This document shows, piece after piece, positions 2,787-58,412 of a stretch of 64,000 bases of DNA. The notes beneath the pieces were generated by a model. That model was not told the origin of the DNA. It worked only from the letters and a program-made list of their open reading frames with translations, and searched no databases. Source of the DNA: Candidatus Omnitrophota bacterium (lineage in GTDB: Bacteria > Omnitrophota > Gorgyraeia > Gygaellales > Profunditerraquicolaceae); contig JAQTQJ010000002.1 in the NCBI GenBank assembly GCA_028712255.1, forward strand, positions 22,846-86,845, written 5' to 3'. Made by a program: the position numbers and the translations under genes. Position 1 is the first letter of the stretch, and every line of letters starts with the position of its first letter.

Positions 2787-2870
2787 CAGATGGTCGAAGT
2801 TATAAAGGATCAAGACGCTGTTGGTATTTTTTTATGAATGCATCGGGTTTAAGAGCGTTGATTTTGTAGC

Positions 2871-3278
2871 GTATCCCCCTCCCCTTGTGGGAGGGGAAAG
2901 GGGCGGGGTAGGTGAAGGGCAAATTGACATCCACTGCCAGGAAGTTAAGGAATAATTCCACAGAAACTGAAAAATGCCTCTGGCAGGCGCTTCGTTACCA
3001 TGGGCTTGGGGTTAAGTTTCGCAGGCAGGCTGTTATCGGCCGGTATATCGTTGATTTTGTATGTTTTGAAAAGAAATTGATTATTGAAGTTGACGGTGGA
3101 CAGCATTCATCATCACAGGAAGATATTGAACGTGATCAATGGCTGCTTAAGCAGGGGTTCAAGATTTTAAGGTTTTGGAATCATGATGTGCTTGGCAATC
3201 AAGAGGGAGTTTTATCTAAGATAGTTGATTCTTTAAAATTGCCCCCTCCCTATCCCTCCCCACAAGGGGGAGGGTATC
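2871..3278 (+). mobile_element. Compact DUF559-endonuclease cassette bounded by ~37-bp GC-rich imperfect inverted repeats, each itself a palindrome
   Basis: Left arm at 2871-2908 is gtatccccctccccttgtgggaggggaaaggggcgggg. The reverse complement of the right arm at 3241-3278 aligns to it at roughly 30 of 36 positions. The arms are far more GC-rich than their surroundings. Confidence 0.45.
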
Positions 3279-10385: not shown

Positions 10386-10395
10386 AATTTGTATT

Positions 10396-10460
10396 GTCAT
10401 TCTGAGGGAGCGAAGCGACCGAAGAATCCAGATCCTTCGCCCTTCGGGCTCAGGATGACG
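10396..10460. repeat. Second full copy of the nested-palindrome repeat
   Basis: gtcattctgagggagcgaagcgaccgaagaatccagatccttcgcccttcgggctcaggatgac. Confidence 0.5.
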
Positions 10461-10496
10461 GAAAATGGTATTTTACAACAGTGCCAAGGTAGATAA

Positions 10497-11393
10497 ATGC
10501 AATTAAATAAAATTGGTGAATTTGGTTTAATTGAAAGGTTTCAGAGGATGATTAAAACTAATTCTTCTGTAATCCAGGGTAGCGGTGATGATTGCGCGGT
10601 TTTAAAGCTGGATAAGTTTAATTACCAGTTGTTTACTACCGATATGATAATTGAGGGGATAGATTTTAAAAAAAATGAAAATCTCAAGCTTGTAGGCAGA
10701 AAGTCCCTGGCTATCTCAATCAGCGATATTGCCGCCTGCGGTGGTATTCCTATGCATGCGGTAGTTGCCCTTGGCCTGCCGCAAAATATGCAGGTTAAAC
10801 AGGTTGACCTATTGTCTAGGGGTATATTTGATTTGGCGAAAAAATTTAATATTAATATTGTCGGAGGGGATATCAGCGTCTCGGATAAATTGATTATTAA
10901 TGTGAGTATGTTGGGCAGTGTTGAAAAAGATAAACTTTGCTTGCGCCTTGGCGCAAAAATAGGCGATATTATTATGGTTACCGGTGAGTTTGGCGGTTCG
11001 ATAAAAGGGAAGCATCTAAAATTCATTCCTCGCCTGAAGGAGGCGCGTTTTTTAGTGAATAATTTTAAAATTAATTCAATGATTGATGTTTCTGACGGGT
11101 TAATCCAGGATTTAGGGCATATTTTAGAACAGAGTTTGGTGGGAGCGGTTTTATATGAGAGCCTTATTCCGCAAAGCAAGGAGGCCAAAGGGCTAGAGGA
11201 TGCGCTTTATTCAGGTGAGGAGTTTGAATTGGTTTTTACGGCGTCAAGAGATCAGGCAAAAAAAATTATTCAAAATTCTAAATATTATTTTAAAGTTATC
11301 GGTGAAATTATGCCGGTATCATTTGGTTTAAAAATGATTAATCTTAAGGATAAATACTCTAAGATCAGGCTGCAGGGGTTTAAACATTTTTAA
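10497..11393 (+). CDS. thiL: Thiamine-monophosphate kinase
   Basis: GEFGLIERF…GDDCAVL N-terminus typical of ThiL, with PurM-like fold. Confidence 0.85.
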   Translation: MQLNKIGEFGLIERFQRMIKTNSSVIQGSGDDCAVLKLDKFNYQLFTTDMIIEGIDFKKNENLKLVGRKSLAISISDIAACGGIPMHAVVALGLPQNMQVKQVDLLSRGIFDLAKKFNINIVGGDISVSDKLIINVSMLGSVEKDKLCLRLGAKIGDIIMVTGEFGGSIKGKHLKFIPRLKEARFLVNNFKINSMIDVSDGLIQDLGHILEQSLVGAVLYESLIPQSKEAKGLEDALYSGEEFELVFTASRDQAKKIIQNSKYYFKVIGEIMPVSFGLKMINLKDKYSKIRLQGFKHF

Positions 11394-41328: not shown

Positions 41329-41781
41329 ATGTGGGAGTCATACAGAGACATCATCCGGAGCTATCCTAGAATTCCCCTCTTTGAAGAAAGGCGTTTGATT
41401 CTCAAAGCTCAAAAAGGTTCAAAGAAGAGTAAAGATGAGCTTGTCCTTAGCCACGTTAGTTTTTTAATCTTTAGAATCCATAAAATCGCATTTCCTTCGT
41501 TGGTTCGGTCCTTTGGAGAGGATCTACTAGCAGAAGCTATCCTTATCGTTTATAAGAAGATCGAAAGCTATGACCTTAATTACTGTGATAAGCATGGCAA
41601 TCCTAATCCAGTTAAATTTACTTCTTACATTTGGAAGCGAATCGATGGGTTCATAATCGATGCTTTAAAGAAAGAGCTCAGCGAGTCAAATTATTACGAT
41701 AGATACAGCGGATACGTCCTTAAAAATGGGGATTTATCGTTTATGTCCGGGTCAATAGAGTCGGACAATTTTATCTCTTGA
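41329..41781 (+). CDS. Sigma-70 region-2-only protein (sigma-factor-like; region 4 absent), paralog 1
   Basis: EERRLILKAQKGSKKSKDELVLSHVSFLIFRIHKIA…GEDLLAEAILIVYKKIESYD…FTSYIWKRIDGFI follows the sigma-70 region 1.2/2.1-2.4 pattern. The ~150-aa length leaves no room for regions 3 and 4. Confidence 0.55.
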   Translation: MWESYRDIIRSYPRIPLFEERRLILKAQKGSKKSKDELVLSHVSFLIFRIHKIAFPSLVRSFGEDLLAEAILIVYKKIESYDLNYCDKHGNPNPVKFTSYIWKRIDGFIIDALKKELSESNYYDRYSGYVLKNGDLSFMSGSIESDNFIS

Positions 41782-45134: not shown

Positions 45135-45226
45135 TAAAATAATGCTTTCCTAAAAAGTGTTATATAATGCCTAGTAAGAGATTGAGAAAGGTTATGCCGT
45201 TAGCATGAGATTGTGCCGTGATAAAC

Positions 45227-46675
45227 ATGAATAAAAAAATAGCTATAATAGGAGCGGGAGTGGGAGGGTTGGCTGCTGCTGCCCGGTTAGCCAAACAGGG
45301 ATATTCTGTTGAGGTTTTTGAGAAGCTGGGTGAATGCGGCGGCAGGAACCATTTGCTTGAAGACAAGGGCTTTAAGTTTGACATGGGGCCTTCGTTTGTG
45401 CTTATGCCGGATTTTTTCGAGGAGGTTTTTTCTTACTGCCGGGAGGATATAAAAGAATATTTGGATCTAAGAGCGATAGATCCTGGTTATACGATCTTTT
45501 TTCCTGACGGAGATTCACTTACGGTTTATAAGGATAGCGCAAGGACCAAAAATGAGCTTGAGAAGATAGAGCCGGGAAGCAGTATTGGTTTTGACGGTTT
45601 TATGCGGGAAACCGCCAAGATCTACCGAACAGTCAGGCCTCTGCTTTACGATTGTTTTACCACTAAGGCGGTATTTAACCCCCGTTATTGGGGGCTGCTG
45701 GGAAAAATCCGGGCTTTTGATTCTTACTGGCAACTGGCAAAAAAGTTCTTTAAGAGCGAGAAACTTTGTTATGCCTTTACCTTCGAGGCGATGTTTATGG
45801 GCGTTTCCCCATTTAATGCCCCGGCATTTTATAGCATAATCAGTTATGCTGACCACGTACAGAAAATATTTCATCCTATGGGCAGTATGTATCAGATTCC
45901 TCTGGCTTTGGAAAAGATGGCGAAAAAATTCGGAGCCCGGTTTCAGTACAATTCAGAGGTGAAGAAAATCAAGCCCAGTGGCGGGGAACTTATTTTGGAA
46001 TTAGACGGCCGGGAAGAGGCTTTTGATAAAGTGGTGGTGAATGCCGATTACGCTTACGCGCAGAGCGAGCTTTTAGGAAGGCGTATATCCAATTATAAGT
46101 ACTCTTGTTCGGTTTATCTTATCTATCTGGGATTAAAGCAAAAGGTAAGTGGGTTCGCTCACCATAATTTATTTTTTTCCAACGACCTTAAGAAAAACCT
46201 AAGCCAAATATTTAAAGAAAAGGCAATGCCTGATAATCCCTCTTTTTACGTGCATGTGCCGACAGTGACAGATTCCTCTTTGGCGCCTGTAGGCAAAGAG
46301 ATATTTTACATATTGGTTCCGGTAGCGAACCTGGAAAAGAACAAAGAAGATATTTCTAGGTATGAAGAGATGTTGCGCAAAATTACTTTTGACAAAATTA
46401 GCGAAAAATTAGGCAGCAGGATTGAGGATTTGATTGAGGTGGAACATAGATTCTACCCTAAGGATTTTATCGGCCGTTATAATATCAAATACGGCGCTAC
46501 TTTTGGCCTGGCGCATAATTTGATGCAAAGCGCTTTTTTTAGGCCCCCCAATTTTGACCATAAGATTAAAAATCTTTATTTTGTAGGAGCCAGCACCCAG
46601 CCGGGAGGAGGGCTACCCGTAGTAATTGCCGGTTCCCGGATTGTTGCTGATTTGATTACAGGCAAGGCGAAATAG
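45227..46675 (+). CDS. crtI: Phytoene desaturase-family FAD-dependent oxidoreductase (CrtI/CrtN-like)
   Basis: IAIIGAGVGGLAAAARLA…E…GGR dinucleotide-binding fold and a C-terminal GASTQPGGG-type motif. Confidence 0.75.
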   Translation: MNKKIAIIGAGVGGLAAAARLAKQGYSVEVFEKLGECGGRNHLLEDKGFKFDMGPSFVLMPDFFEEVFSYCREDIKEYLDLRAIDPGYTIFFPDGDSLTVYKDSARTKNELEKIEPGSSIGFDGFMRETAKIYRTVRPLLYDCFTTKAVFNPRYWGLLGKIRAFDSYWQLAKKFFKSEKLCYAFTFEAMFMGVSPFNAPAFYSIISYADHVQKIFHPMGSMYQIPLALEKMAKKFGARFQYNSEVKKIKPSGGELILELDGREEAFDKVVVNADYAYAQSELLGRRISNYKYSCSVYLIYLGLKQKVSGFAHHNLFFSNDLKKNLSQIFKEKAMPDNPSFYVHVPTVTDSSLAPVGKEIFYILVPVANLEKNKEDISRYEEMLRKITFDKISEKLGSRIEDLIEVEHRFYPKDFIGRYNIKYGATFGLAHNLMQSAFFRPPNFDHKIKNLYFVGASTQPGGGLPVVIAGSRIVADLITGKAK

Positions 46676-47525
46676 GAAGGTTGTTTAAGGTTGCCTTTTT
46701 TATGTAGGCAATGATTTCTTTTGTGGTATCATCAGGGGTCGATGCCCCAGCAGTAATCCCCACCGAATTTACCCCTTTAAACCAGGCAGGCTTTATATCT
46801 TTTTTTGATCGGACCCAATAGCTCCTATCGTTTAGCGATTTTGAGATTTCGTAAAGCCTTTTAGTATTAGCGCTGGTCTTTGAACCGATAATAATCATAA
46901 CGTCATTTTCCAAAGGCATATTTTTCATCTCTTGCTGTTTTAAACGCGTCGGGAGGCAGATAGTATTAAATAATTTTAATTCTTTGATATGCGGTTTTAA
47001 TAGATCAAAAATTTTCATTACCTTTTCAATATTCTGCGTAGACTGAACTACAAGAGTAGCCTTTTTTATTTTTTTGATCTTTTTCAAATGTACGCTTTGC
47101 AGGCTATCGATTAGTATTGGTTTCTTTTTCAGCTGCCCTATGATTCCGATTACCTCGTCATGGTTTTTATCTCCGATTAATATAACCGTCTGTCCATGGC
47201 TCTGGGCATTATGGGCGATTTTATGGATTTCCTTTACCATGGGGCAAGTAGCATCGACAATTTTGTATCCGAGCTTACGGGCTTGTTCGATAATATTAAG
47301 GCCGGCTCCGTGGGCGCGGATTAAAAAGATTTTATTTTTTCCGCAGCCGAGCCCCTGAGTTTTTTTTAAGCCCGCCTTTTCCAGCCTTTTAGCCACCTCT
47401 TCGTTATGCACAATATTGCCGAGCATATAGACGTTCTTATTACCGGCGAGTGTTTTATAGGCGATGTCAATCGCCCTTTTTACGCCAAAACAGAAACCTG
47501 CTGATTTAGCCAGATTTATTTTCAT
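46656..47525 (-). CDS. ispH: 4-hydroxy-3-methylbut-2-enyl diphosphate reductase
   Basis: MKINLAKSAGFCFGVKRAI N-terminus and conserved Cys (…DATCPMV…, …NTIC…). Confidence 0.9.
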   Translation of the reverse strand: MKINLAKSAGFCFGVKRAIDIAYKTLAGNKNVYMLGNIVHNEEVAKRLEKAGLKKTQGLGCGKNKIFLIRAHGAGLNIIEQARKLGYKIVDATCPMVKEIHKIAHNAQSHGQTVILIGDKNHDEVIGIIGQLKKKPILIDSLQSVHLKKIKKIKKATLVVQSTQNIEKVMKIFDLLKPHIKELKLFNTICLPTRLKQQEMKNMPLENDVMIIIGSKTSANTKRLYEISKSLNDRSYWVRSKKDIKPAWFKGVNSVGITAGASTPDDTTKEIIAYIKKATLNNLPISPCL

Positions 47526-48367
47526 AGATACTTTCCTTTAAATATTATCTTTGAGACAGCGATTATTTTTTTCGGGGTGCTTACGCAGGCACGTTTGGTA
47601 AAGACATCAAAATCATTTTTTTCTATGGAGTTTAGTATTCCGGAGTAGATGTCAGCCATAGCGCAGGCCACAAAACGGGAATTTAGGTCAGCAAGCATCT
47701 TTATCCCTTGTTTGGCTTTTTCGTAATATTCTCTTGAGCGGGCTATTTGGAATTTCATCAATGCTTTAAAATTCTCATTTATTTGTGAACGAAAGATATC
47801 GCTTTCTGATACTTGAAAGCGCTGCATTTCATCTTCAGGGAGGTAGATCCTGTTTCGATTAAAATCTTCTTTGATGTCGCGCAGGATATTAGTTAATTGC
47901 ATGGCTACGCCCAAACTTATGGCATAATCTGCTGCCTTTGGGTTTGTGTAGCCGAATATCTCTAACATGATTAGCCCCACTACGCCGGCTGCCTTGTAAC
48001 AGTAATCATATAATTCCTCAAAGTTTTTGTAGCGGTTCTTATATAAATCCATATACATGCCTTCTATGAGGGCGTCAAAATATTTTTTTTGGACATGGTA
48101 TTTGTTTATAGATTGCTGAAAGGCTAATAAGAGAGGATCGGCAGGGGGCGCGTTTTTGTAGACAGAATCAATTTTTTGTTGAAGTATAGCTAGGCTGCCT
48201 AAGGTTGAAGGATCTCGTTTACCATCTACAGCTTCATCGCTGATGCGGCATATTGCATATACCGCATATGCGGCGGATCTTTTTTCTTTTTTTAGGAATC
48301 GGGAAGAAAAATAGAATGTTTTGGCATGTTGTTTGGTGATCGCCTCTGCTAATAGCAAACCTTCCAT
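47522..48367 (-). CDS. crtB: Phytoene/squalene synthase-family protein (CrtB/CrtM-like)
   Basis: Head-to-head prenyltransferase motifs: YAICRISDEAVD (first DxxxD region), MQLTNILRDIKED (second Asp-rich region). Confidence 0.8.
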   Translation of the reverse strand: MEGLLLAEAITKQHAKTFYFSSRFLKKEKRSAAYAVYAICRISDEAVDGKRDPSTLGSLAILQQKIDSVYKNAPPADPLLLAFQQSINKYHVQKKYFDALIEGMYMDLYKNRYKNFEELYDYCYKAAGVVGLIMLEIFGYTNPKAADYAISLGVAMQLTNILRDIKEDFNRNRIYLPEDEMQRFQVSESDIFRSQINENFKALMKFQIARSREYYEKAKQGIKMLADLNSRFVACAMADIYSGILNSIEKNDFDVFTKRACVSTPKKIIAVSKIIFKGKYL

Positions 48368-48452
48368 GATTATATTCTACAATAAATAATCTAAAATCAA
48401 AACCAAATTTTACCTTTGAAAAACACAATATTTGCAATACAATATATGTGTT

Positions 48453-48761
48453 ATGTCAGAATATATGGTAGTTTTAATTTTGTCCATAGTAGTGCCTTTT
48501 CTGTTAAGTTTTTGGCCCGGACTTAAATTTTACCGCAATATCCGTTCCCTTTTTATCAGCGTATTTCTCATAGTTATTATCTTCGGCAGTTGGGATATAT
48601 TCGCAACATATAGAGGCCACTGGTACTTTAATCCAAGAGGCGTCTGGGGTTTTAGGGTTATTAACCTTCCGCTGGAAGAGGTATTGTTTTTTGTGGTTAT
48701 ACCTTTTTGTTGTATTTTTACTTGGGAAGCGATTAAGTATCTTGGGGGAAGATTTAAATGA
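48453..48761 (+). CDS. Lycopene cyclase-domain small membrane protein (heterodimeric CrtYc/CrtYd type)
   Basis: ~100-aa, 3-TM protein with PLEE motif (NLPLEEVLFFVVIP). Translationally coupled to a second homologous half. Confidence 0.6.
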   Translation: MSEYMVVLILSIVVPFLLSFWPGLKFYRNIRSLFISVFLIVIIFGSWDIFATYRGHWYFNPRGVWGFRVINLPLEEVLFFVVIPFCCIFTWEAIKYLGGRFK

Positions 48762-49057
48762 AAGAGTATACTATCTTAGGTATAGCCGCGGTTTTATTGA
48801 CTGTCTACTTAGATAAGGCCAGCCATATTAACCTGCTTAAGAAAAAGGGGTACTATGTATTTATCCTGGTAATTCTATTTTTTAAAATGTTGGTGAACGG
48901 TTATTTAACCGGCAAGCAAATTGTAATGTATCGGCCGCAATTTTTTTTGGGATTAAGGATAGGGAGTATTCCTCTGGAAGATTTTTTATTTGGCTTTAGC
49001 ATGGTAACCATGACCATAATTTTCTGGGAGTATTTTAAAAAGAGGCAGGCATGTTAA
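48758..49057 (+). CDS. Lycopene cyclase-domain small membrane protein (second half)
   Basis: Paralogous ~99-aa membrane protein with PLED motif (IPLEDFLFGFSM). Confidence 0.6.
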   Translation: MKEYTILGIAAVLLTVYLDKASHINLLKKKGYYVFILVILFFKMLVNGYLTGKQIVMYRPQFFLGLRIGSIPLEDFLFGFSMVTMTIIFWEYFKKRQAC

Positions 49058-49947
49058 AAAGATCAATATTATTTTTCGTTGCATTTTCTTTTTTAGGGAT
49101 AAATTTATCTTACGGTTTAGATTGGAAAGAGTTGCATGAAAAAGCAGATAATATGATTTTATCGGATATCTTAGCCGATGTTAAGGCAAGGCCTGATTCT
49201 ATAAATGATTTATATGTTCTGGGTTTGGTCTATTTGAATTTACATAAGGATAAAGAAGCAGGAGAGGCTTTTAATAAAGTTTTAACTTTAGACCCTAGGG
49301 CAATCGAGGCAAAATGGGGAAAGGCTGAAGTCCTGCGCCGGCGGCATCAGCCGCAGAAAAGCGAAGAGCTGTTAAGCGGGGTATTAAAACAGAATCCCGA
49401 TTTCCCCCCGGCCTCTATAACCCTGGCTTATATAAGATACACCCAGATGAATTTTAAAGCAGCGGTCAGATTGGCTATAACGGTATTGAGACAGGGAGAA
49501 AAAAATGTTGACCGGGGCAATCAGGTGCGTGCCCATTTGATATACGGAGGTACAAAGGGTATGATCGCGCACTACGGAGGCCCTCTCTCAAAGATCATCA
49601 ATGGCACAGCGGTATTACCGAGCTTAAAGGCGGCGGAGAGATTACAGCCTGAATCAGCGGAGGTCAAATTTGGCTTGGGTAGTTTTTATCTTTTGGCGCC
49701 TGCTTTAGCCGGGGGAAATTTGGAAAAGGCAGAAGCTTATCTCAAAAAAGCAGTTGAAAATGATCCGCTATTTGCTGATGCTTATGTAAGATTGGGTCAG
49801 CTTTATAAAGTTAAGGGTGATGACGTAAGATATAATAAATATTTAAATAAAGCGCTGGAGATTGATCCTCAGAACGAATTAGCACTGGATATCAAAAGTG
49901 GCACATGTAAATTTATTTGTTTTAATAAAGGCATAGAATCAAATTAG
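49051..49947 (+). CDS. Secreted TPR-repeat protein
   Basis: Signal peptide, then several TPR-like helical repeats (…AGEAFNKVLTLDP…, …AEAYLKKAVENDP…, …NKYLNKALEIDP…). Confidence 0.5.
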   Translation: MLKRSILFFVAFSFLGINLSYGLDWKELHEKADNMILSDILADVKARPDSINDLYVLGLVYLNLHKDKEAGEAFNKVLTLDPRAIEAKWGKAEVLRRRHQPQKSEELLSGVLKQNPDFPPASITLAYIRYTQMNFKAAVRLAITVLRQGEKNVDRGNQVRAHLIYGGTKGMIAHYGGPLSKIINGTAVLPSLKAAERLQPESAEVKFGLGSFYLLAPALAGGNLEKAEAYLKKAVENDPLFADAYVRLGQLYKVKGDDVRYNKYLNKALEIDPQNELALDIKSGTCKFICFNKGIESN

Positions 49948-50196
49948 TTGTAAGTTTACCGGTCGCTGTTCGATGTAAAAGTATAACCGATTACGGAATA
50001 GGAAAGGCCCCCAAGCAATATCGTTCTCTGGTGGTAACTATTTTTGGGATTTTTATGTATGAAAAAATAGCGTAGCGGCATTGGAGCAGGCCAGGACGGT
50101 GGCAGTTAATGTGCTTGTTTTCGGAGAACTTTTTCATCTTTTTAGCTGCCGGTCTCTAACCCGGTCGATGTCCGCTCTCGGAGTGTTCTCTAACAG

Positions 50197-50628
50197 GTGG
50201 ATATTCTTCGGCGTTATCCTAGAATTTCCCTATCTGAAGAAAGACGTTTGATTCACAAGGCTCAAAATGGTTCAAAGAAAAGCAAGGAAGAGCTTGTATT
50301 GCGTCATGTTGGCTTTGTAATTTTTAGAATTCACAAAGTAGCGTTTCCTGCCTTGATCCAGAGATTTGGAGACGACCTGCTTGAAGAAGCCATCCTGATT
50401 ATCTATAAAAAAATCGAAAGCTATAACCTTGATTACCGCGATAAGAAAGGCAATCCTAATCCGGTGAAATTTACCTCTTACATTTGGAAACGGATCGATG
50501 GTTTTATAATCGTTTCATTAAAGAAGGAGCTTGGCGAGTCAAATTATTACGATAGGTATAGCGGATATGCCCTTAAAATTTATAAAAAGACACTTTCCAG
50601 CATAAAATTGGTGCAGTTTTCTGATTGA
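50197..50628 (+). CDS. Sigma-70 region-2-only protein, paralog 2
   Basis: About three-quarters identical by eye to the 41329 paralog over the whole protein (EERRLIHKAQNGSKKSKEELVLRHVGFVIFRIHKVA…FTSYIWKRIDGFII). GTG start. Confidence 0.55.
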   Translation: MDILRRYPRISLSEERRLIHKAQNGSKKSKEELVLRHVGFVIFRIHKVAFPALIQRFGDDLLEEAILIIYKKIESYNLDYRDKKGNPNPVKFTSYIWKRIDGFIIVSLKKELGESNYYDRYSGYALKIYKKTLSSIKLVQFSD

Positions 50629-50892
50629 GATGGAAAGCGTCTGTATCTTTGTATTTTCAATAGCGGTTGTAGGTCTTTTTATGTTGCGATGTTTCTGGAG
50701 TTAGGGTATTGCGTTTATTAGTTGTATATCGGCCGTATTCCTAGGTGTTTTTACGGATTCACCCCTTCAAAAAAAGTTAAGAAAAGGTCTAAATACACTA
50801 AATACATATAAGATTAGAGTATAAACTCTAAAAACTAATGCTATAATTATAGAAATGACCTTTCAAGTGAATTTGGAGAAATATTTAACTAT

Positions 50893-51642
50893 ATGTTAAT
50901 GCCATCTATATTATCTGGTACTTTGTTAACATCGGATCATCAAAAGATAGCGTATTGTCATTATAAGGTTGGTCACGATAAAGTAGTTATTATAGTTCAC
51001 GGTTTTTATAATAGTAAAGACGCCGTAATATTAAAGAAATTCGCTGAGGTTCTGTATGATGATTATGATATATTTATGTTCGATTTTAGAGGGCACGGGA
51101 AGAGCAGTGGATTTTTTTCATGGACAAGTAAAGAGGGTATAGATTTAGAAGTAGCGCTGGACTATATGGATGGAAAATATAAGAAAATAGCCATGCTCGC
51201 TTTTTCTTTTGGAGCAAGCGTAGCTATCAATACCTTAGCGTACGATAAACGGGTCGATTCGCTTATATGTGTAAGTTCTGTATCAGATCCTAACAAAATT
51301 GATTATCAGTTTTGGGAGTTGGATTTAAAAGGTGACTTAGCATATACTTTGTTTACTTTCGAAGGCCTTAAAGGAAGAGGATTTCGTCTCGGGCCATTTT
51401 GGCTTAAAAAAGAAAAGCCTATTGATAATGTAGCTAAAATACAAATTCCTATCCTATATATTCACGGAGACAGGGATTGGGTGATTAAGCCATGGCATTC
51501 TCAAGCGCTTTATGATAAAACGCAGTCTAAGAAAAGGATGGCCATTATTAAAGGCGGGCCACATGCGGAATATTTAATAAGAGATTATTTCACGCAATTT
51601 ATGACTGAAACTAAAAATTGGTTTCAGGAAACATTAACATAA
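50893..51642 (+). CDS. Alpha/beta-fold hydrolase
   Basis: VHGFYNS oxyanion region, nucleophile elbow AFSFGAS (GxSxG), and a C-terminal HGDRD/His region. Confidence 0.65.
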   Translation: MLMPSILSGTLLTSDHQKIAYCHYKVGHDKVVIIVHGFYNSKDAVILKKFAEVLYDDYDIFMFDFRGHGKSSGFFSWTSKEGIDLEVALDYMDGKYKKIAMLAFSFGASVAINTLAYDKRVDSLICVSSVSDPNKIDYQFWELDLKGDLAYTLFTFEGLKGRGFRLGPFWLKKEKPIDNVAKIQIPILYIHGDRDWVIKPWHSQALYDKTQSKKRMAIIKGGPHAEYLIRDYFTQFMTETKNWFQETLT

Positions 51643-51651
51643 GGAGATATA

Positions 51652-52395
51652 GTGAAAAGTATATTTATTACTATTGGCCAACTTATTTTCTCGTTGGTTA
51701 TGTATATTATTGGAACAGTATATTTTGGTTTAGCATTAATTCCCAGTATTGCTATTGTTTTAAAAGCTTGGAATGCAGGCCTGTTAATGCAGCCGATTAG
51801 CCGTTATGCGCTTTTAGGATTTTCATTAGCTGGGGGATATTTTGTTTTTGGTTTTTCTATGATTATACTTGCAGGCTTAACAAGGACGATTTTAGGTTTA
51901 CGACTTAAAGAGGGAAATTATCCAATTTTTTCTCCGATGGCTTTAAAATGGGCTTTTGTTAGTGCCCTGTATCTTTTTATTAATTTTACCTTCGTTGATT
52001 TTATTCTTCTTACTCCCTTTGCTAATTTGTTGCAGCGACTTTTAGGTGCTAAGCTAGGGAAAAATGTTCAAATAAATTCAAAATTCGTATTTGATGCCAC
52101 TCTTCTTGAGATTGGCGATAATACAGTAGTCGGAGGCGGTGCAATTATTATTGGGCATGTGGTAGAACGAGGTATTCTTAAACTTAAAAGAGTAAAAATT
52201 GGGAAAAATGTAACCATTGGTTCTCACGCTACAATTATGCCGGGATGCGAGATTGGTGATAATGCAATCATTGGTGCAAGCGCAGTCCTTTTGAAAAATA
52301 CCAAAGTTGAATCGAGGGCGGTGTATTTTGGTGTACCCGCCGAGCAGCTTAAGCCTCATCATCATAAAGAGGAAACTGATAATGCCCAACGTTAG
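51652..52395 (+). CDS. Membrane-anchored hexapeptide-repeat (left-handed beta-helix) acyl/acetyltransferase
   Basis: Four N-terminal TM helices, then an LbH domain (GDNTVVGGGAIIIG…IGKNVTIGSHATIMPGCEIGDNAIIGASAVL). GTG start behind an aaggag RBS. Confidence 0.6.
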   Translation: MKSIFITIGQLIFSLVMYIIGTVYFGLALIPSIAIVLKAWNAGLLMQPISRYALLGFSLAGGYFVFGFSMIILAGLTRTILGLRLKEGNYPIFSPMALKWAFVSALYLFINFTFVDFILLTPFANLLQRLLGAKLGKNVQINSKFVFDATLLEIGDNTVVGGGAIIIGHVVERGILKLKRVKIGKNVTIGSHATIMPGCEIGDNAIIGASAVLLKNTKVESRAVYFGVPAEQLKPHHHKEETDNAQR

Positions 52396-55081
52396 CTTTA
52401 AAGATTTAAAGATAATTGATCTTATGGTTGCAATTAACCAGCGTTTTTCTGATATCCCTGCTTTACAGATCAAAGAATATGGTAAGTTTAGGGCTCTTTC
52501 TTATATTGATCTTGGGAGGCGGACCGCAGATACCGCTCATAATTTAAAAAAATTGGGAGTAGATCGAGGAAATAGAGTAGCTATTTTGTCTGAAAGTAGG
52601 CCTGAATGGGCCATCGCTTTCTTTGGCATTGTTTCTTGCGCTGGCATTACTGTTCCAATGGATGTGAAATTGAGTGATGCAGAAGTAGAATTTATTATTA
52701 ATGATTCTGGTGCTAAGTGTATTTTTATTTCCAATAAGTTTTTGGAAAGGATTAAAGGGCTAAGGCCAAAGCTTAAATTTATTGAACATATTATTTGTTT
52801 AGATAATGATGCAAAAGAAGATGTAATACTATTGAAAGATTTCAAAGTTTCCGAAAAGGAAGTTACGTATAGAGAAATAAAGGAAGATGATGTTGCAGTA
52901 ATAGTTTATACTTCCGGGACAACAGGTGTTGCTAAGGGCGTAGAACTAACTTATAAGAATTTATTGTTCGAAGTTACCTCTTTACACGATTTGATTAATT
53001 TTAATGACAAGGATGAGTTTTTATCCATTTTGCCTCTTAATCACATGCTTGAGTTAACAGGTGGTCTCCTTGGCCCTCTGTATGCGGGTGCGACAGTAAC
53101 TTATTGTGATAGTTTAAAACCTACAAATATCCTTCAATTGATGAACGAAACAAAATCGACAGTTATGATTTGCGTTCCTCTTGTTTTGAAGATGTTTCAT
53201 AATAGCATAATGAATAAAATATATGATCTGCCGGAAATTAAAAGGCTATTTGTTAAAACCTTACTTAATATTTCAAGATTTTTGCTAAAATTTCATATAC
53301 GAGTTGGTAAAGTTTTATTTATGTCAATACATAAGCAATTTGGATCAAATATACGTGGTTTTGTTTCCGGAGGCGCCCCGTTAGATGCAATTGTAGAACT
53401 TAATTTCAACGCTATGGGTTTTAGGATATTGCAAGGTTATGGTTTAACAGAAACAGCTCCAGTAATTACAGTTAATAATTTTGAAGATTGCAAATATGGA
53501 TCTGTCGGCAAGCCTTTGCCTGGAGTTGATGTAAAGATTATTCCAAATAACGAAACTGGTGGTAAGGATGGAGAGATTGTCGTTTGCGGTCCGAATGTCA
53601 TGAAAGGTTATTATAAAAGCGAAGAAAAGACAAAAGAAGTTTTAAAAGAAGGCTGGTTTCATACTGGTGATATTGGTTATTTTGATGTGGATGGTTTTTT
53701 ATTCATTTCGGGGAGAATAAGAAACTTGATAGTTTTAGGTTCAGGGAAGAAGGTATTTCCAGAAGAGATTGAAGAAGTAATGTCGGCCAGCCAGTATATA
53801 AAAGAAATATGTGTTTTAGGAAAGGTTGCCCAGCAAGGAATAAGAAAAGGTTGTGAAGAAGTTTATGCAGTTGTTGTCCCAAATTTAGATATGTTTGATA
53901 AAGAAAATAGAGTAAATAAAGAGTTTGTTAGGGAAAAGATCAATTCTGAGATATTAAGGTTGGGAGCAAATTTGGCTGAATATAAAAGAATAATGAATTT
54001 TGATATTTTTTATGATGAGTTGCCAAAGACATCAACGCGTAAAATAAAAAGGAAGGTTCTGTTGGAGCTTATTTCGAAAGCTGGAGTAGAGACAGAAAAG
54101 GAAGAATTTATTGAATCTACCCAGATCATGGAAGATGATTTTACCTTAAAATTAAGAAAAATAATTTCTGATTTAGCAAAGATTTCTCCTGAGAGAATAA
54201 CTCTTAATGCAGCACTTTATAATGATTTAGGGGTTGATTCTCTAATGAAAGTAGAGATTTTGACAAGTATACAAAAAGAACTCGGCATTAATATTCCGGA
54301 TAGTTTGAGTTATGAAATTAATACTCTTGGAGATTTAATAAAATTTGCTAAAGAATATAAAGCTGGTAGGAGTGGTGATGAGGAAGGAGAAAATAAAGAG
54401 GTTAATGATTTTGTAAATAAAAGGGTAAAATTCAAGTTAACACATGATGCCGCATATTTTATTTTTAAGTCCTTTTTTAAGATTTATTTTAATAAAACCG
54501 TATTTGGGTTAGAAAATATACCTCGTAATGGTTCATTTATTATTGCTGCAAATCATACCAGCTTATTGGATTTTCCTTTAATTATGACCAGTTTGCCTTA
54601 TGAGAAAATGAAAAACGTATTTGCTCCTGCCGCACAAGATTATTTTTATGTTAAGAAATATCGTAGAGCAATAATAGAATTATTATTTAATACGTTTCCT
54701 TTCGAAAGAATGGGAGATTTTGTAAAAGGATTAAAGATATGTGAGGCCCTTGTTAAAAACAATTGTTCGATAATTCTCTTCCCGGAAGGCACAAGAGTCA
54801 TGTCTGATCAATTACAGCCGTTTAAACCTGGATTAGGATCTTTGGCTTTAAATTTAAATGTTCCAATTTTACCAGTTTATATTGAAGGTGCTTTTAGGGC
54901 TATGCCAAAAGGGAAAGCTTTTCCTTCGCCAAGCAAGATTGAAATAATATTTGGGAAGGCTATATACCCAGATAAAATGGATTTATCAAATATTGTAAAT
55001 AATTACGAAAAATATGTTTATCTTTCTAAGGTATCTTTTGATGAAGTAGTTAAATTAAAAGAAAGAGGGCGAGGAAAATGA
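52382..55081 (+). CDS. Triple fusion: AMP-dependent acyl-CoA/acyl-ACP synthetase + acyl-carrier-protein domain + lysophospholipid (PlsC-type) acyltransferase
   Basis: AMP-binding motifs (YTSGTTGVAKGV; GYGLTETA; TGDIGYFD…GR), a phosphopantetheine site (LGVDSLMKVE), then acyltransferase motifs NHTSLLD (HX4D) and FPEGTR. ATG 52382 lies behind an agaggaaa RBS. Confidence 0.75.
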   Translation: MPNVSFKDLKIIDLMVAINQRFSDIPALQIKEYGKFRALSYIDLGRRTADTAHNLKKLGVDRGNRVAILSESRPEWAIAFFGIVSCAGITVPMDVKLSDAEVEFIINDSGAKCIFISNKFLERIKGLRPKLKFIEHIICLDNDAKEDVILLKDFKVSEKEVTYREIKEDDVAVIVYTSGTTGVAKGVELTYKNLLFEVTSLHDLINFNDKDEFLSILPLNHMLELTGGLLGPLYAGATVTYCDSLKPTNILQLMNETKSTVMICVPLVLKMFHNSIMNKIYDLPEIKRLFVKTLLNISRFLLKFHIRVGKVLFMSIHKQFGSNIRGFVSGGAPLDAIVELNFNAMGFRILQGYGLTETAPVITVNNFEDCKYGSVGKPLPGVDVKIIPNNETGGKDGEIVVCGPNVMKGYYKSEEKTKEVLKEGWFHTGDIGYFDVDGFLFISGRIRNLIVLGSGKKVFPEEIEEVMSASQYIKEICVLGKVAQQGIRKGCEEVYAVVVPNLDMFDKENRVNKEFVREKINSEILRLGANLAEYKRIMNFDIFYDELPKTSTRKIKRKVLLELISKAGVETEKEEFIESTQIMEDDFTLKLRKIISDLAKISPERITLNAALYNDLGVDSLMKVEILTSIQKELGINIPDSLSYEINTLGDLIKFAKEYKAGRSGDEEGENKEVNDFVNKRVKFKLTHDAAYFIFKSFFKIYFNKTVFGLENIPRNGSFIIAANHTSLLDFPLIMTSLPYEKMKNVFAPAAQDYFYVKKYRRAIIELLFNTFPFERMGDFVKGLKICEALVKNNCSIILFPEGTRVMSDQLQPFKPGLGSLALNLNVPILPVYIEGAFRAMPKGKAFPSPSKIEIIFGKAIYPDKMDLSNIVNNYEKYVYLSKVSFDEVVKLKERGRGK

Positions 55082-55689
55082 TTACGGTTTACGATTTAAA
55101 ACCGCGTTTTCAAAAAATTCTACAACCAACTATGCAATATCTTATCAAAAAAGGGGTAACTCCTAATATTGTTACTTTTATGGCGCTTTTAGGATCTTTT
55201 TTAGTAGCGATTTTTTCCATTATTCTTAAAGATCGTGCTTGGATTTTGTTAATTTTACCTATGTGGTTATTCATTAGGATGGCTTTAAACGCAATTGATG
55301 GAATGATGGCTCGACAATTTAATTTATCTTCTCGTCTTGGCGCTGTCTTAAATGAAACAGGAGATATCCTTTCTGATATTTTTCTTTATCTTTCTTTAAT
55401 TGTTTTCTACCCTGGTGTATTATGGGCTATATATCTTTTCGTTATTTTAGCTATTTTAACAGAATTCTGTGGAGTTTTAGGACAAGCTCTGGGGGTTGGC
55501 CGTTGTTATGACGGGCCGATGGGTAAAAGCGATAGAGCTTTTTTTGTTGGCTTACTAGCGGTTATTTCTTTTATTTTCCCTTCAGTATTTAAATTGTGGA
55601 GCTATTTTTTTTATGGAGTTTCTTTCTTAAGTATTTTAACCTGTTGGAATAGACTCCGTCATAGTTTAAAAAGTAGGGAGCAAGGATGA
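55078..55689 (+). CDS. CDP-alcohol phosphatidyltransferase-family protein
   Basis: DG(x)2AR…G(x)3D(x)3D signature: AIDGMMARQFNLSSRLGAVLNETGDILSD. Confidence 0.8.
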   Translation: MITVYDLKPRFQKILQPTMQYLIKKGVTPNIVTFMALLGSFLVAIFSIILKDRAWILLILPMWLFIRMALNAIDGMMARQFNLSSRLGAVLNETGDILSDIFLYLSLIVFYPGVLWAIYLFVILAILTEFCGVLGQALGVGRCYDGPMGKSDRAFFVGLLAVISFIFPSVFKLWSYFFYGVSFLSILTCWNRLRHSLKSREQG

Positions 55690-56639
55690 AAGAACTCTTT
55701 TTATCTCTTACGTTGACACAGCAAGGCGGAATCATTGTTTTATTTTTATTGATACCTGCCTCAGCTATTCTTTATATTTTAAAGAAGATTCGTCCAGATA
55801 CTGACTGGGCCGAACTTGGTAATCGTATAAAGGCTTGGTGGATTATGGCCGTAGTTTTTCTTACAGCTATGTCAGTGAACCGTAATATTTCAATCGTTTT
55901 TTTCGCTCTTTTAAGTTTTTTAGCTTTGAAAGAATATTTTTCCATTTTTAAAACGAGATTGGTTGATCAACGCGCTATTTTTTGGGCATTTTTAACCATA
56001 CCTATTCAATATTATTGGATTGTCACACAGTGGTATGGTATGTTCTTGATTTTTATTCCTGTTTATATGTTTTTATTTCTTCCAGTTCGTCTGGTTTTGG
56101 TCGGAGAAATGCAAGGCTTTTTAGCGGCGGCTTCCAGGATTCAATGGGGTATTATGGCATTTGTATTTGGTTTGGGCCACATTGCCTATCTTTTAACTTT
56201 ACCACAACTTTCTGGTATTAAGGTTAGCGGAACCTCCTTGGTTTTCTTTCTCGTTTTAATGACCGAGTTGGGTGATGTTTCTCAATATATTTGGGGTAAG
56301 ATTTTGGGGAAACATAAAATCCTGCCATTGGTGAGTCCTAAAAAGACGTGGGAGGGATTTTTAGGTGGGGTTTTTTCAGCGATGATTCTTGGTGCCGTGT
56401 TTAGATTTTTAACTCCTTTTTCAGTAGCCAGCGCTATTGTAATAGGAGCTATTATTGCGATTGTTGGTTTTTGTGGGGATGTGGTTATGTCTGCCGTTAA
56501 AAGAGATGCAGGTGTTAAGGATTTCGGACAACTGATTCCAGGCCACGGTGGAATGCTAGATCGTGTTGACTCTCTATGTTTTACTGCGCCTGTATTCTTT
56601 CACATTGTAGTATTTTTTTATTACTCTCACTTATCATAA
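55686..56639 (+). CDS. cdsA: Phosphatidate cytidylyltransferase-family protein (CdsA-like, N-terminally extended)
   Basis: C-terminal CdsA signature KRDAGVKDFGQLIPGHGGMLDRVDS. Confidence 0.75.
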   Translation: MKELFLSLTLTQQGGIIVLFLLIPASAILYILKKIRPDTDWAELGNRIKAWWIMAVVFLTAMSVNRNISIVFFALLSFLALKEYFSIFKTRLVDQRAIFWAFLTIPIQYYWIVTQWYGMFLIFIPVYMFLFLPVRLVLVGEMQGFLAAASRIQWGIMAFVFGLGHIAYLLTLPQLSGIKVSGTSLVFFLVLMTELGDVSQYIWGKILGKHKILPLVSPKKTWEGFLGGVFSAMILGAVFRFLTPFSVASAIVIGAIIAIVGFCGDVVMSAVKRDAGVKDFGQLIPGHGGMLDRVDSLCFTAPVFFHIVVFFYYSHLS

Positions 56640-56923
56640 TAATTGTGTGATTTCAATAAAGAGGGGGTCTCCCTTGATTAGGATTATTTTTTTTATGGGG
56701 ATTTTTTCAGGCTACTATTTTTTTCTTAGCTCCTGACGTTTATTTAACGGGAGTTGTTCTAAAGGCTGATTTAAAGAAAACATTAGGGGCTCTTTTAGTG
56801 GGAGCTCTTGTATATTATTTTGCTTTCATGTATCCTTTGAAAACATTAAATTGGTTCGATCATATTCCGGGAATTTTTGTAAAACTAATTCAGGATGTCC
56901 GCTTTTTATTGAAAGGAGAGGCC

Positions 56924-57301
56924 ATGTTAATGAGAATGATGGGAGTTATTTTATTAACCCTAATTATAGGAGGCTGCGCGACAGGCGTAAAGAAACAAAC
57001 AACGCAGCAATCAGACTATCAGTGGCCTTCGCAAACATATCAACAAAATACTTCTTCTTGGGATTATGAAGATGTCCAGCCAGCCAAAAGCACAACATAT
57101 TCCGTTCCTGTTAACTTAAGTGCGAAGCAAATTCAAAGGGCATTAAAAAGCGCCGGTTTTTATCAAGGAGCGGTTGACGGTAAAATCGGGCCCAAGACTA
57201 AGAGTGCTATCATAAAATTTCAGAAAGCACATAATCTTAAGGCAGATGGTGTTGTAGGCAAGAGAACATCGATGGAGCTAAATAAATATTTATCTGAATA
57301 A
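56924..57301 (+). CDS. Lipoprotein with C-terminal peptidoglycan-binding (PG_binding_1) domain
   Basis: Lipobox LIIGGC, then GFYQGAVDGKIGPKTKSAIIKFQKAHNLKADGVVG. ATG 56924 lies behind a gaaaggagag RBS. The upstream in-frame extension to 56798 is discounted. Confidence 0.65.
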   Translation: MLMRMMGVILLTLIIGGCATGVKKQTTQQSDYQWPSQTYQQNTSSWDYEDVQPAKSTTYSVPVNLSAKQIQRALKSAGFYQGAVDGKIGPKTKSAIIKFQKAHNLKADGVVGKRTSMELNKYLSE

Positions 57302-57371
57302 TGAAAGCAAAGGTAAAAGCGCAATAGTATAGAGCGATAATCTAGTATTCGGTTTAGTTCTAGGATTTTGT

Positions 57372-58412
57372 TTGAGAAAGGATTCTATGGTTAAAACTAA
57401 GATAATCTGCACGCTTGGCCCGGCATCATCAAGGGCGAGGATACTTAGAAAAATGATTCTTGCCGGCATGGATGTCGCCCGTTTGAACTTCTCGCACGGT
57501 AAACCGCGGGAGTTACTTGATAGAATAGGCTTCATTCGGATATTAAACGCGAAATACCGTAGGCACATAAAGCTTCTAGGCGATCTTCAGGGGCATCGAA
57601 TAAGGATAGGAGAGCTCGTTGCTCCAGCTTTGCTTAAAAAAAGCCGGATTGTATGGCTTACTCAGCAAAACATAAAAGGATCGCATGAAATTATACCTTT
57701 GGATTACCGCGGCCCGCTAATCAGTATTAAGAACGGCCACCGGATATTCATCGATGATGGAAATATTGGTTTAGAAGTGATCGGTAGGGCTAAAAACAAA
57801 CTTAAGGCCAAGGTGATAACCGGCGGCCTGCTTAAGGAGCATAAGGGCGTAAATATCCCGGAGGCAAGGCTTGAATTCGGTGGTATAAGCCAGAAGGATA
57901 TGCAGGATATATCTTTTTGCGAAAAACATGGCGTGGAATATATCGCCCAGTCATTCGTGCGCACAAAGAGGGATATAATGGATGTAAGAGGGGTTCTCGG
58001 GGAAAGCTCTCAGATTAAGATTATCGCTAAAATCGAGAATAGGGAGGGCATAAAGAATGTCGATGAAATAATTAAGGTTTCCGATGGCATTATGATAGCG
58101 CGCGGAGATATGGGGGTATCGCTGCCCATCTATGAAATACCCGTTATCCAAAAGATGATTATAAAAAAATGTAACCGTGCAAGAAAGTTTGTTATTACCG
58201 CAACCCAGATGCTTGAGAGCATGACTGAAAATCTTAGGCCTACCCGCGCTGAGGTAACGGACGTGGCAAATGCCATAATCGACGGCACTGATTTTGTGAT
58301 GCTTTCGGCAGAATCAGCCGTGGGTAAATACCCGGTTGAAACGGTTGCTATGATGAATAATATCATAAAATTTACGGAAGGTTATTTAAAAGAAAAGAAA
58401 GCTTCAGAATAG
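57372..58412 (+). CDS. pyk: Pyruvate-kinase-like protein lacking the C-terminal domain (A + B domains only)
   Basis: PK N-terminal signature [10 protein letters not shown]…[13 protein letters not shown] and TIM-barrel motifs (KIIAKIEN; MIARGDMGV; ATQMLESM). Ends after the A-domain at 346 aa, where canonical PKs continue with a further C-terminal domain. Confidence 0.7.

Follow-up and report, generated by a model that had tools for sequence, protein, structure and literature searches.

Among the described systems, the locus reported here comes closest to ElbD of Myxococcus xanthus and to the ynbABCD genes of Escherichia coli. For ElbD, fatty-acid activation and loading of an acyl carrier protein (ACP) were shown in vitro, according to the account in PMC9131029, which cites Lorenzen 2014. 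"ElbD-like proteins lacking FAR1" were already described by Lorenzen et al. 2014, as relayed in PMC9131029, and the ElbD-like proteins outside the myxobacteria nearly all lack the fatty-acyl reductase (FAR) and come with no lipid data (PMC9131029). Fusions of an acyl-AMP ligase and a lysophospholipid acyltransferase have been mentioned in passing (PMC8460268). In E. coli, overproduction of YnbB raises the glycolipid MPIase and its knockout has little effect; the enzyme has CdsA-like activity, yet it does not complement a cdsA knockout (PMC6362211). Beyond this YnbB/MPIase work and a regulation paper, the literature search on the function of ynbA, ynbC, ynbD and ynbABCD returned nothing. Here, we analysed a 64,000-nucleotide window of contig JAQTQJ010000002.1 (Candidatus Omnitrophota bacterium, GCA_028712255.1) and describe a five-gene operon centred on a ligase-ACP-acyltransferase triple fusion; all positions are those of this window.

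Far from being a one-off oddity, the operon encodes a membrane-lipid pathway that is real and conserved but only partly understood. Triple fusions of this kind were known before, if uncharacterised. The novelty is that, across Omnitrophota, such a fusion shares an operon with YnbA/YnbB and a Pls-like membrane LbH enzyme, which links it to the uncharacterised Ynb module of other phyla. As the best explanation, which we hold with about even confidence, the operon would be a fatty-acid-fed branch of a Ynb lipid pathway in which two modules are combined.

The five-gene operon and its proteins

The open reading frame list places five co-directional genes on the + strand at 50893-56639:

50893..51642 (+), alpha/beta hydrolase, 249 aa
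51652..52395 (+), membrane LbH (hexapeptide) acyltransferase, 247 aa
52382..55081 (+), triple fusion of ligase, ACP and PlsC-type acyltransferase, 899 aa
55078..55689 (+), YnbA counterpart, a CDP-alcohol phosphotransferase-family membrane protein, 203 aa
55686..56639 (+), YnbB counterpart, a CdsA-family cytidylyltransferase, 317 aa

The junctions are tight. A 9-nt gap separates the hydrolase and LbH genes, with GGAG preceding the GTG start of the latter; the LbH and fusion genes overlap by 14 nt, with AGAGGA preceding the ATG at 52382; and ATGA overlaps join both the fusion to ynbA and ynbA to ynbB. A purine-rich ribosome-binding motif precedes every start, and the five genes are translationally coupled. 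The gene calls agree with the NCBI entries MDD5108187.1-MDD5108190.1 and with a 100%-identical "phosphatidate cytidylyltransferase" on a 168,455-bp Candidatus Omnitrophica contig of a metagenome-assembled genome (MAG), although the public names of the operon proteins are generic only. The five-gene operon of the original prediction, made from the sequence alone, was thus borne out by the reading frames, the junctions and the same gene order in the two closest relatives, and the domain content proposed for each gene was confirmed by Pfam and NCBIfam.

The fusion is divided into three domains:

52382-54091 (+), residues 1-570, acyl-adenylate-forming ligase domain
54149-54346 (+), residues 590-655, AcpP-type acyl carrier domain, with the Ser620 codon at 54239-54241
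54500-54883 (+), residues 707-834, PlsC/AGPAT-type acyltransferase domain, with H725-x4-D730 and FPEGTR at 800-805

Pfam recovered AMP-binding (residues 20-411, E = 2e-80, with a C-terminal subdomain extending to 562), PP-binding (590-655, E = 1.4e-14) and Acyltransferase (707-834, E = 3e-23; PF01553 at 82 bits against a cut-off of 23), in the order that had been proposed. The catalytic motifs are all intact: in an alignment of 20 homologues (48-75% identity), D619-S620, H725, D730, F800-P801-E802-G803, R805 and the TSGTTG..KG adenylation loop are invariant. The doubt originally attached to the middle domain, that it might lack the conserved serine of the DSL motif, is removed because the Ser620 attachment site, an Asp-Ser-Leu within the PP-binding fold, is among these invariant positions. 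When isolated, the carrier segment matched fatty-acid (AcpP-type) ACP models rather than peptidyl carriers by sequence, at about 54 bits, under equivalog cut-offs that were set for free ACPs. The isolated acyltransferase, carrying both the HX4D and FPEGTR motifs, scored 61.5 bits against AGP_acyltrn (TIGR00530), whose subfamily cut-off is 102.95, and Aas-type models also matched it below cut-off. Against the Protein Data Bank (PDB), the ligase matched the E. coli FAAL structure with 97 bits and fatty-acyl-CoA synthetases with up to 169 bits. The Kyte-Doolittle scan found no true transmembrane (TM) segment in the fusion.

The original prediction called the operon unusual; for the triple fusion at its centre, this does not hold. 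Of the best 120 protein clusters, at least about 50 are full-length triple fusions with 48-88% identity; their named taxa are mostly Omnitrophota, and the others are labelled Wallbacteria, Deltaproteobacteria or "bacterium". Additionally, by Pfam, loci labelled Acidobacteriota, Opitutales, Nitrosomonas, Fibrobacteraceae and Saccharibacteria have triple fusions that likewise lack the reductase; in a Bacteroidales example, Pfam detected no PP-binding domain. Among the clusters listed, many relatives have stand-alone ligases of 565-575 aa, 60-66% identical to the fusion ligase. One such locus was examined (L002/L003; related loci carry L numbers) and has the same hydrolase-LbH-ligase context with no ACP. 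Because the stand-alone ligase of this locus shares the context, the ACP-acyltransferase portion was probably added within one ligase lineage. A protein at 9713-10945 of L105 has ACP and acyltransferase parts akin to those of the fusion, with no ligase part detected, and may be a split form.

By sequence, the fusion is a reductase-less ElbD-like protein and not a permuted Aas. It is colinear with a Myxococcales FAR-ligase-ACP-acyltransferase protein (L012), with 33% identity over 821 columns (E = 9e-122), the ligase insertion included; this comparison used a Myxococcales protein of ElbD architecture and not M. xanthus ElbD itself. The fusion acyltransferase domain scored 100-104 bits against ElbD-type and Bacteroidales fusions, 77-87 against the stand-alone partners of Ynb modules, 54-61 against MFS-linked acyltransferases, and 22-24 against E. 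coli proteins (Aas 24, PlsC 22). A crude neighbour-joining tree without support values agreed with these scores and placed the fusion acyltransferase beside the ElbD-type one.

The last two genes were described in the original prediction as a CDP-alcohol transferase and a CdsA; the families were right, although both genes are more specifically counterparts of YnbA and YnbB and not of PgsA and CdsA, as judged by sequence identity and conserved pairing. The fourth gene matches CDP-OH_P_transf (Pfam, E = 2e-8), and its product is 44% identical to E. coli YnbA over the full length (E = 3e-46) against 17% to PgsA. The fifth gene matches CTP_transf_1 (Pfam, E = 1e-66), and its product is 45-46% identical to E. 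coli YnbB over the full length (E = 4e-77) against 25% to CdsA. The YnbB counterpart keeps the complete CdsA cytidylyltransferase signature (SAVKRDAGVKDFGQLIPGHGGMLDRVD) and aligns to the Thermotoga CdsA structure 4q2g across the catalytic half; it did not reach the housekeeping CdsA equivalog PRK11624 (105 bits against 385). Likewise, the YnbA counterpart remained below the curated cut-offs for archaetidylinositol-phosphate synthase (84.6 against 180 bits) and PIP synthase (52 against 170 bits), and missed the curated model of PG-phosphate synthase (PgsA).

The canonical CDP-alcohol phosphotransferase motif is D-x2-DG-x2-AR-x8-G-x3-D-x3-D. In the YnbA family it reads N-x2-D-G-x2-A-R-x8-G-x3-N-x3-D-x3-D, with Asn for D1 and D3 in every member examined, that of E. 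coli included, which also sets the window protein apart from PIP and archaetidylinositol-phosphate synthases. In some Omnitrophota YnbA subtypes, the motif Arg is also replaced by Ile. A PDB sequence search with YnbA gave pentatricopeptide repeat proteins as top matches, which were judged spurious; the real matches were mycobacterial PI-phosphate synthase (E = 1e-6) and eukaryotic choline phosphotransferases.

The first gene encodes a hydrolase of the Hydrolase_4/Abhydrolase_1 type (Pfam, E = 3e-18). Its triad is Ser105/Asp195/His224, and xFSxG, HGxxDW and GxHAE are kept in the homologues of related loci; the Kyte-Doolittle scan found no TM segment, which points to a soluble protein. The LbH protein matches Hexapep (Pfam, E = 2e-14) and has about four N-terminal hydrophobic TM helices followed by the LbH domain, in which His169-x-x-Glu172-Arg173 is invariant. 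It is the most conserved protein of the cluster: the best 120 of its 777 homologues (all E <= 1e-5) are 66-94% identical, and the named taxa listed are all Omnitrophota. Its best NCBIfam match, TM hairpin included, is TIGR02353, the C-terminal domain of non-ribosomal peptide synthetases (NRPS) of the Pls/PosA type (E = 3e-28, profile 38-224 of 695); as a stand-alone protein with a single repeat, it scored 98.7 bits against a cut-off of 423. The AlphaFold2 model (predicted local distance difference test 85, one of five models confident) shows a helical membrane bundle and the LbH domain. A fold search with this model retrieved maltose and galactoside O-acetyltransferases as best PDB folds, and among the PDB structures found were only generic sugar and serine O-acetyltransferases, with no Pls-type structure. 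The sole other LbH match in the window is a serine-acetyltransferase-like hexapeptide protein with a hydrophobic N-terminal extension at 443-1261 (tblastn E = 3e-7).

Conserved context among relatives

Neighbourhoods were drawn from metagenome and genome collections, and the counts include a few duplicate contigs. The genome-contig scan used generic ligase motifs, and most of its 80 loci are unrelated stand-alone ligases. The two closest relatives, with fusions 87-88% identical to that of the window, have the same five genes in the same order. Among 25 loci whose sequence continues for at least 2 kb past the fusion, YnbA and YnbB follow it in 16, a kinase in 12, a methyltransferase in 10 and none of these genes in four. 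Upstream, the LbH gene precedes the fusion in 17 of the 25 loci with upstream sequence, and the hydrolase gene lies directly 5' of the LbH gene in 12 of the 20 where enough upstream sequence was available. This recurrence of gene order is far beyond chance.

The full Omnitrophota cluster comprises MarR, an LplT-like MFS-acyltransferase, the hydrolase, LbH, the fusion, YnbA, YnbB, a fusion of deoxynucleoside-kinase-like and diacylglycerol (DAG)-kinase-like parts, and Methyltransf_20. The MFS-acyltransferase matches the N-terminal two-thirds of LplT-Aas proteins with 224 bits. The minimal unit is LbH with a ligase or a fusion (L004, L097, L098). The kinase fusion of relatives, with 587 aa, joins an N-terminal deoxynucleoside/dTMP-kinase-like P-loop part to a DAG-kinase catalytic part; it is found in L005 (11382-13145), L110, L117, L087, L006 and others, right after ynbB or the triple fusion.

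At least three divergent YnbA/YnbB subtypes, only 25-36% identical to the window pair, occupy the slot after the fusion, even beside fusions 59-75% identical to that of the window (L087, L091, L093/L095, L125). Since divergent subtypes fill the same slot, selection on the fusion-Ynb combination can be argued. The window pair is nearer to that of E. coli than to these other Omnitrophota pairs, and YnbA/YnbB are 55-65% identical among proteins labelled Omnitrophica, Verrucomicrobiota, Blastocatellia and Firmicutes. In four further loci, L128 (Omnitrophica), L129, L130 (Verrucomicrobiota) and L131 (Firmicutes-labelled), YnbA-YnbB is followed by a stand-alone PlsC-type acyltransferase of 207-227 aa and then by a VTT/DedA-like membrane protein of 183-204 aa. 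Because these loci have a stand-alone partner, the Ynb pair appears to work with a PlsC-type enzyme, a role filled here by the fusion. Upstream of its Ynb module, L128 carries an MFS-acyltransferase, a 505-aa ligase, the hydrolase, the LbH gene and a DUF2339 gene.

An Aas-like protein is also found beside a Ynb module outside Omnitrophota. On a scaffold of Clostridium sp. CAG:768 (L027, 8792-15857), a true LplT-Aas-type MFS-acyltransferase-ligase protein of 1161 aa has, on the opposite strand, a neighbour cluster of an acyltransferase, YnbB (42% identical to that of the window), Methyltransf_20 and YnbA. This is an independent association of the two kinds of function; the related locus L013 is labelled Gastranaerophilaceae.

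The window operon is a trimmed version of the larger conserved cluster. Downstream of ynbB there is a gene in decay:

56678..56947 (+), remnant of a VTT/DedA-like gene

In frame, it encodes the N-terminal half of a protein of about 190 aa and is, by tblastn, 56% identical to the L124 protein over 94 aa (E = 2e-25), 52% to that of L123 and 31-38% over about 92 aa to the L129-L131 copies. In relatives, an intact gene of this family follows ynbB or the stand-alone acyltransferase. In the window, the frame opens right after a TGA with no ATG, GTG or TTG before 56798, carries an internal deletion, and runs in frame into an unrelated PG_binding_1 lipoprotein gene (signal peptide from about 56921) that replaces the C-terminal half. 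Of five full-length homologues scanned, three gave a weak VTT_dom match (24-25 and 20 bits, under the cut-off of 33.9), and the L123 and L130 copies gave none. A tblastn search of the whole window found no counterpart of the Methyltransf_20, DAG-kinase-like or MFS-acyltransferase genes that relatives carry, and in the closest relative, L124, the Methyltransf_20 gene downstream of ynbB is broken into two fragments (10393-11028). The same relative has a group II intron-type reverse transcriptase gene at 1617-3074, about 1 kb upstream of its hydrolase gene.

Proposed pathway and alternative explanations

In the fatty-acid-fed Ynb pathway, the module of hydrolase, membrane LbH acyltransferase and ligase would take in free or recycled fatty acids. 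The ligase domain would adenylate the fatty acid and transfer it as a thioester to the phosphopantetheine at Ser620 of its own ACP domain. The PlsC-type domain (HX4D) would use the loaded ACP to acylate a lyso-glycerolipid, in the simplest case lysophosphatidate, which would yield phosphatidate. YnbB would then convert phosphatidate and CTP into CDP-diacylglycerol, from which YnbA would move the phosphatidyl moiety onto an acceptor, an alcohol or a phosphate. The hydrolase would most likely deacylate scavenged or damaged lipids to provide substrates, or alternatively edit the carrier domain, and the LbH enzyme may make a second acyl transfer from the same activated pool. In the fuller clusters, lysolipid uptake and DAG phosphorylation could also feed the pathway. 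The idea of the original prediction, a single polypeptide that would activate a fatty acid, carry it and esterify it, is supported in general terms by the three domains, all of which keep their catalytic residues.

A functional link between the fusion and the Ynb pair is argued for because the genes are translationally coupled and the arrangement recurs in 16 of 25 loci. The clusters of relatives also add classic recycling functions in the LplT-like MFS-acyltransferase and the DAG-kinase-like protein. The in vitro loading of fatty acid onto the ACP domain of ElbD (PMC9131029, citing Lorenzen 2014) speaks for the pathway as well. For the LbH enzyme, the C-terminal domain of Pls reportedly takes its acyl donor from the thiolation domain (work attributed to Yamanaka et al. 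2008); because that domain uses a thiolation-bound donor, the family resemblance suggests that the LbH enzyme may use acyl groups from the loaded fusion.

Several points weigh against this pathway. The roles of the hydrolase and the LbH protein are read from family membership and position alone. The LbH-fusion pair occurs without YnbA/YnbB in L004/L097 and L098, and a stand-alone ligase without any ACP is present in L002; because relatives split them in this way, each module can function on its own, and a carrier in cis is not a strict requirement for the ligase. Since two of the four motif aspartates are Asn, the chemistry of YnbA, judged from its sequence, may differ from ordinary CDP-alcohol phosphatidyl transfer. 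In addition, attempts to show acyl transfer by ElbD in vitro did not succeed (PMC9131029).

A broader proposal can be made, tentatively and with a lower expectation that it holds: YnbA, YnbB, a PlsC-type acyltransferase and a VTT/DedA-like protein would constitute a lipid pathway of undescribed product in at least three named phyla, and the Omnitrophota operon would show how it is fed by a ligase-ACP unit and complemented by a second acylation by LbH. One possibility for the product is a phosphatidyl- or diacylglycerol-pyrophosphate-linked head group, made through the variant site of YnbA.

It seems unlikely that the operon is instead the organism's main set of PlsC, CdsA and phosphatidyltransferase, with the ligase-ACP part serving scavenged fatty acids. 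The protein families do fit the core phospholipid pathway, the phylum has the LbH-ligase pair very widely and in highly conserved form, and the reported lifestyle of Omnitrophota, largely ultra-small and host-dependent (PMC10066038), would suit lipid scavenging. However, the last two genes match YnbA/YnbB and not PgsA/CdsA, the curated CdsA, PgsA and PIP-synthase models were all missed, the YnbA catalytic motif is deviant, and E. coli YnbB cannot replace CdsA (PMC6362211). Moreover, the YnbA/YnbB pair is missing from several related clusters, and the window lineage is losing accessory cluster genes, which is unexpected for an essential pathway. The original prediction gave the downstream genes a role in making a dedicated lipid species, and this view is favoured over bulk phospholipid synthesis by their match to YnbA/YnbB.

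A second alternative is lysophospholipid repair, analogous to Aas/LplT, in which the fusion only re-acylates envelope lysophospholipids and YnbA/YnbB are mere neighbours. The LplT-like MFS-acyltransferase that heads the cluster in relatives speaks for this explanation, but the window itself has no such gene. NCBIfam LplT-Aas models match both that protein and the fusion, and a Melainabacteria locus has a true MFS-acyltransferase-ligase protein beside ynbB and ynbA; the similarity of the fusion to E. coli Aas is nevertheless low, and its acyltransferase is nearer to those of Ynb modules and ElbD-type proteins. The coupling to ynbA/ynbB and the recurrence of the pair after the fusion also speak against mere neighbourhood, and we regard repair as quite improbable.

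The ElbD likeness raises the question of ether lipids, with the fusion acting like ElbD and committing fatty acids to alkyl-ether glycerolipids. The colinear identity with the Myxococcales protein and the position of the acyltransferase domain in the tree favour this explanation, and a Black Sea survey found ElbD homologues in 93 of 267 Omnitrophota MAGs, which were taken as possible ether-lipid capacity (PMC11868695). On the other hand, Pfam detected no NAD_binding_4/FAR domain in the fusion, the other four operon proteins or the immediate neighbours; because the reductase is absent, neither a fatty alcohol nor an aldehyde could be made, and the ether-lipid reading of Omnitrophota ElbD homologues is doubtful here. 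No AGPS-type (FAD-linked) or epimerase/NAD-binding gene occurs among the called genes of the listed related loci, ElbB, ElbC and ElbE not having been specifically searched. Nearly all ElbD-like proteins outside the myxobacteria share the lack of FAR, as stated above, and an isolate of Pontiella has an ElbD homologue but forms no ether lipids (PMC11868695). Ether-lipid synthesis is thus very unlikely.

Finally, a split version of the adenylation-thiolation-transferase machine of epsilon-poly-lysine synthetase, in which ligase-ACP and LbH would modify a non-lipid acceptor by acylation or polymerisation at the membrane and PlsC and YnbA/YnbB would be secondary, is suggested by the TIGR02353 match, by LbH and ligase being the minimal conserved pair and by the high conservation of LbH, but is barely credible given a ligase of the fatty-acyl type rather than an NRPS amino-acid adenylation domain, relatives whose stand-alone ligase gives LbH no carrier domain, a score far under the cut-off, and ordinary sugar O-acetyltransferases as structural neighbours. 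An AlmEFG/Dlt-like amino-acid transfer system was also considered and ruled out, as neither the fatty-acyl-type ligase nor the AcpP-type carrier fits it.

The preferred pathway, a fatty-acid-fed Ynb branch, would have consequences beyond this genome. The repeated, independently assembled synteny ties YnbA/YnbB to a defined acyl input and a PlsC-type partner, which makes the pathway testable. For a phylum reported as largely ultra-small and host-dependent, a cluster that would activate fatty acids, take up and re-acylate lysolipids, phosphorylate DAG and provide CDP-activation could be one way of making membranes out of scavenged lipid; lipids are not discussed in the Omnitrophota genome literature that was searched. 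Without the reductase, the number of "ElbD homologues" counted in metagenomes of Omnitrophota should not be equated with ether-lipid capacity. If the broader Ynb proposal were true, the operon, once solved, would explain what ynbABCD does in E. coli and define a new lipid class in a phylum without cultured members.

Flanking features and comparison with described systems

Two candidate signals flank the operon:

50839..50847 (+), extended -10-like promoter element TGCTATAAT, 46 nt before the hydrolase ATG
56784..56810 (+), terminator-like hairpin inside the remnant downstream of ynbB, with an 11-pair stem, 4 G-C pairs and a T-rich tail

The promoter element lies in the 264-bp intergenic region 5' of the hydrolase gene and was read directly off the sequence, unscored by the consensus scan. 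Both signals are a weak indication because the consensus scans of the region show no enrichment over shuffles, with 34 promoter-like sites against 28 +/- 5.4 expected and 4 terminator-like sites against 5.4 expected. An Rfam scan of 49900-57500 found no riboswitch or leader and gave a single chance snoRNA match (E = 0.34).

The sigma-region-2 paralogue that had been placed directly upstream is present, although no link to the operon was found. Two such small proteins, at 41329-41781 (150 aa) and 50197-50628 (143 aa), are 79% identical to each other, and the similarity of both to sigma-70 region 2 is sub-threshold (Pfam E = 7e-4, NCBIfam SigY E = 6e-4). Further upstream, a carotenoid-type gene set at 45218-49057 contains a CrtI-like amine-oxidase desaturase and two half-size Lycopene_cyc proteins, as well as LytB/IspH and squalene/phytoene synthase on the - strand; it is followed by a TPR protein at 49051-49947.

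Compared with Aas, the fusion has the same kinds of parts, an adenylate-forming fatty-acid ligase and an HX4D acyltransferase in one protein. Aas has an N-terminal acyltransferase followed by a C-terminal ligase and uses free ACP, whereas the fusion has the opposite order and its own carrier. The original description, Aas parts in reverse order with an internal ACP, was therefore correct as to order and built-in carrier, but the protein is closer to the ElbD type than to a permuted Aas. Its ligase is 27% identical to that of E. coli Aas (E = 5e-36) and its acyltransferase 23% (E = 6e-8), and a 38-residue insertion in the ligase is absent from E. coli Aas. The NCBIfam LplT-Aas models match the fusion in part and their cut-offs were widely missed (PRK08633, 237 bits against 1221; PRK08043, 27.9 against 886, for the acyltransferase part). 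The clusters of relatives also resemble LplT-Aas in encoding an LplT-like MFS transporter fused to an acyltransferase.

With ElbD, the fusion has in common the order of ligase, ACP and AGPAT-like acyltransferase. It differs in lacking the N-terminal fatty-acyl reductase (NAD_binding_4/Sterile) of ElbD, which is present in the Myxococcales protein L012, and in its context: the ElbD-like genes examined in other phyla did not have membrane LbH, hydrolase and YnbA/YnbB as neighbours. In the Pls/PosA systems, the C-terminal domain has three TM-hairpin-plus-LbH repeats after the A-T protein. The LbH protein matches one of these repeats with its TM hairpin, and its gene adjoins one for an adenylation-carrier unit; it differs as a single-repeat, presumably homo-trimeric protein with about four TM helices, whose partner ligase is of the fatty-acyl type.

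The resemblance to E. coli ynbABCD extends over several genes. The ynbA and ynbB genes are adjacent and overlapping in the same order, with the same YnbA motif and the same CdsA signature. E. coli YnbC combines an N-terminal Hydrolase_4 with a C-terminal Methyltransf_20, and relatives of the window carry both halves as separate genes; the window hydrolase is only weakly similar to the hydrolase half of YnbC (E = 3e-5). A phmmer search with E. coli YnbD found no YnbD-type phosphatase in any fetched locus, and the window lacks Methyltransf_20. With Hydrolase_4 and Methyltransf_20 together counted as YnbC, the Omnitrophota cluster repeats three of the four ynbABCD functions; it differs from that of E. 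coli in being coupled to a fatty-acid-activating fusion.

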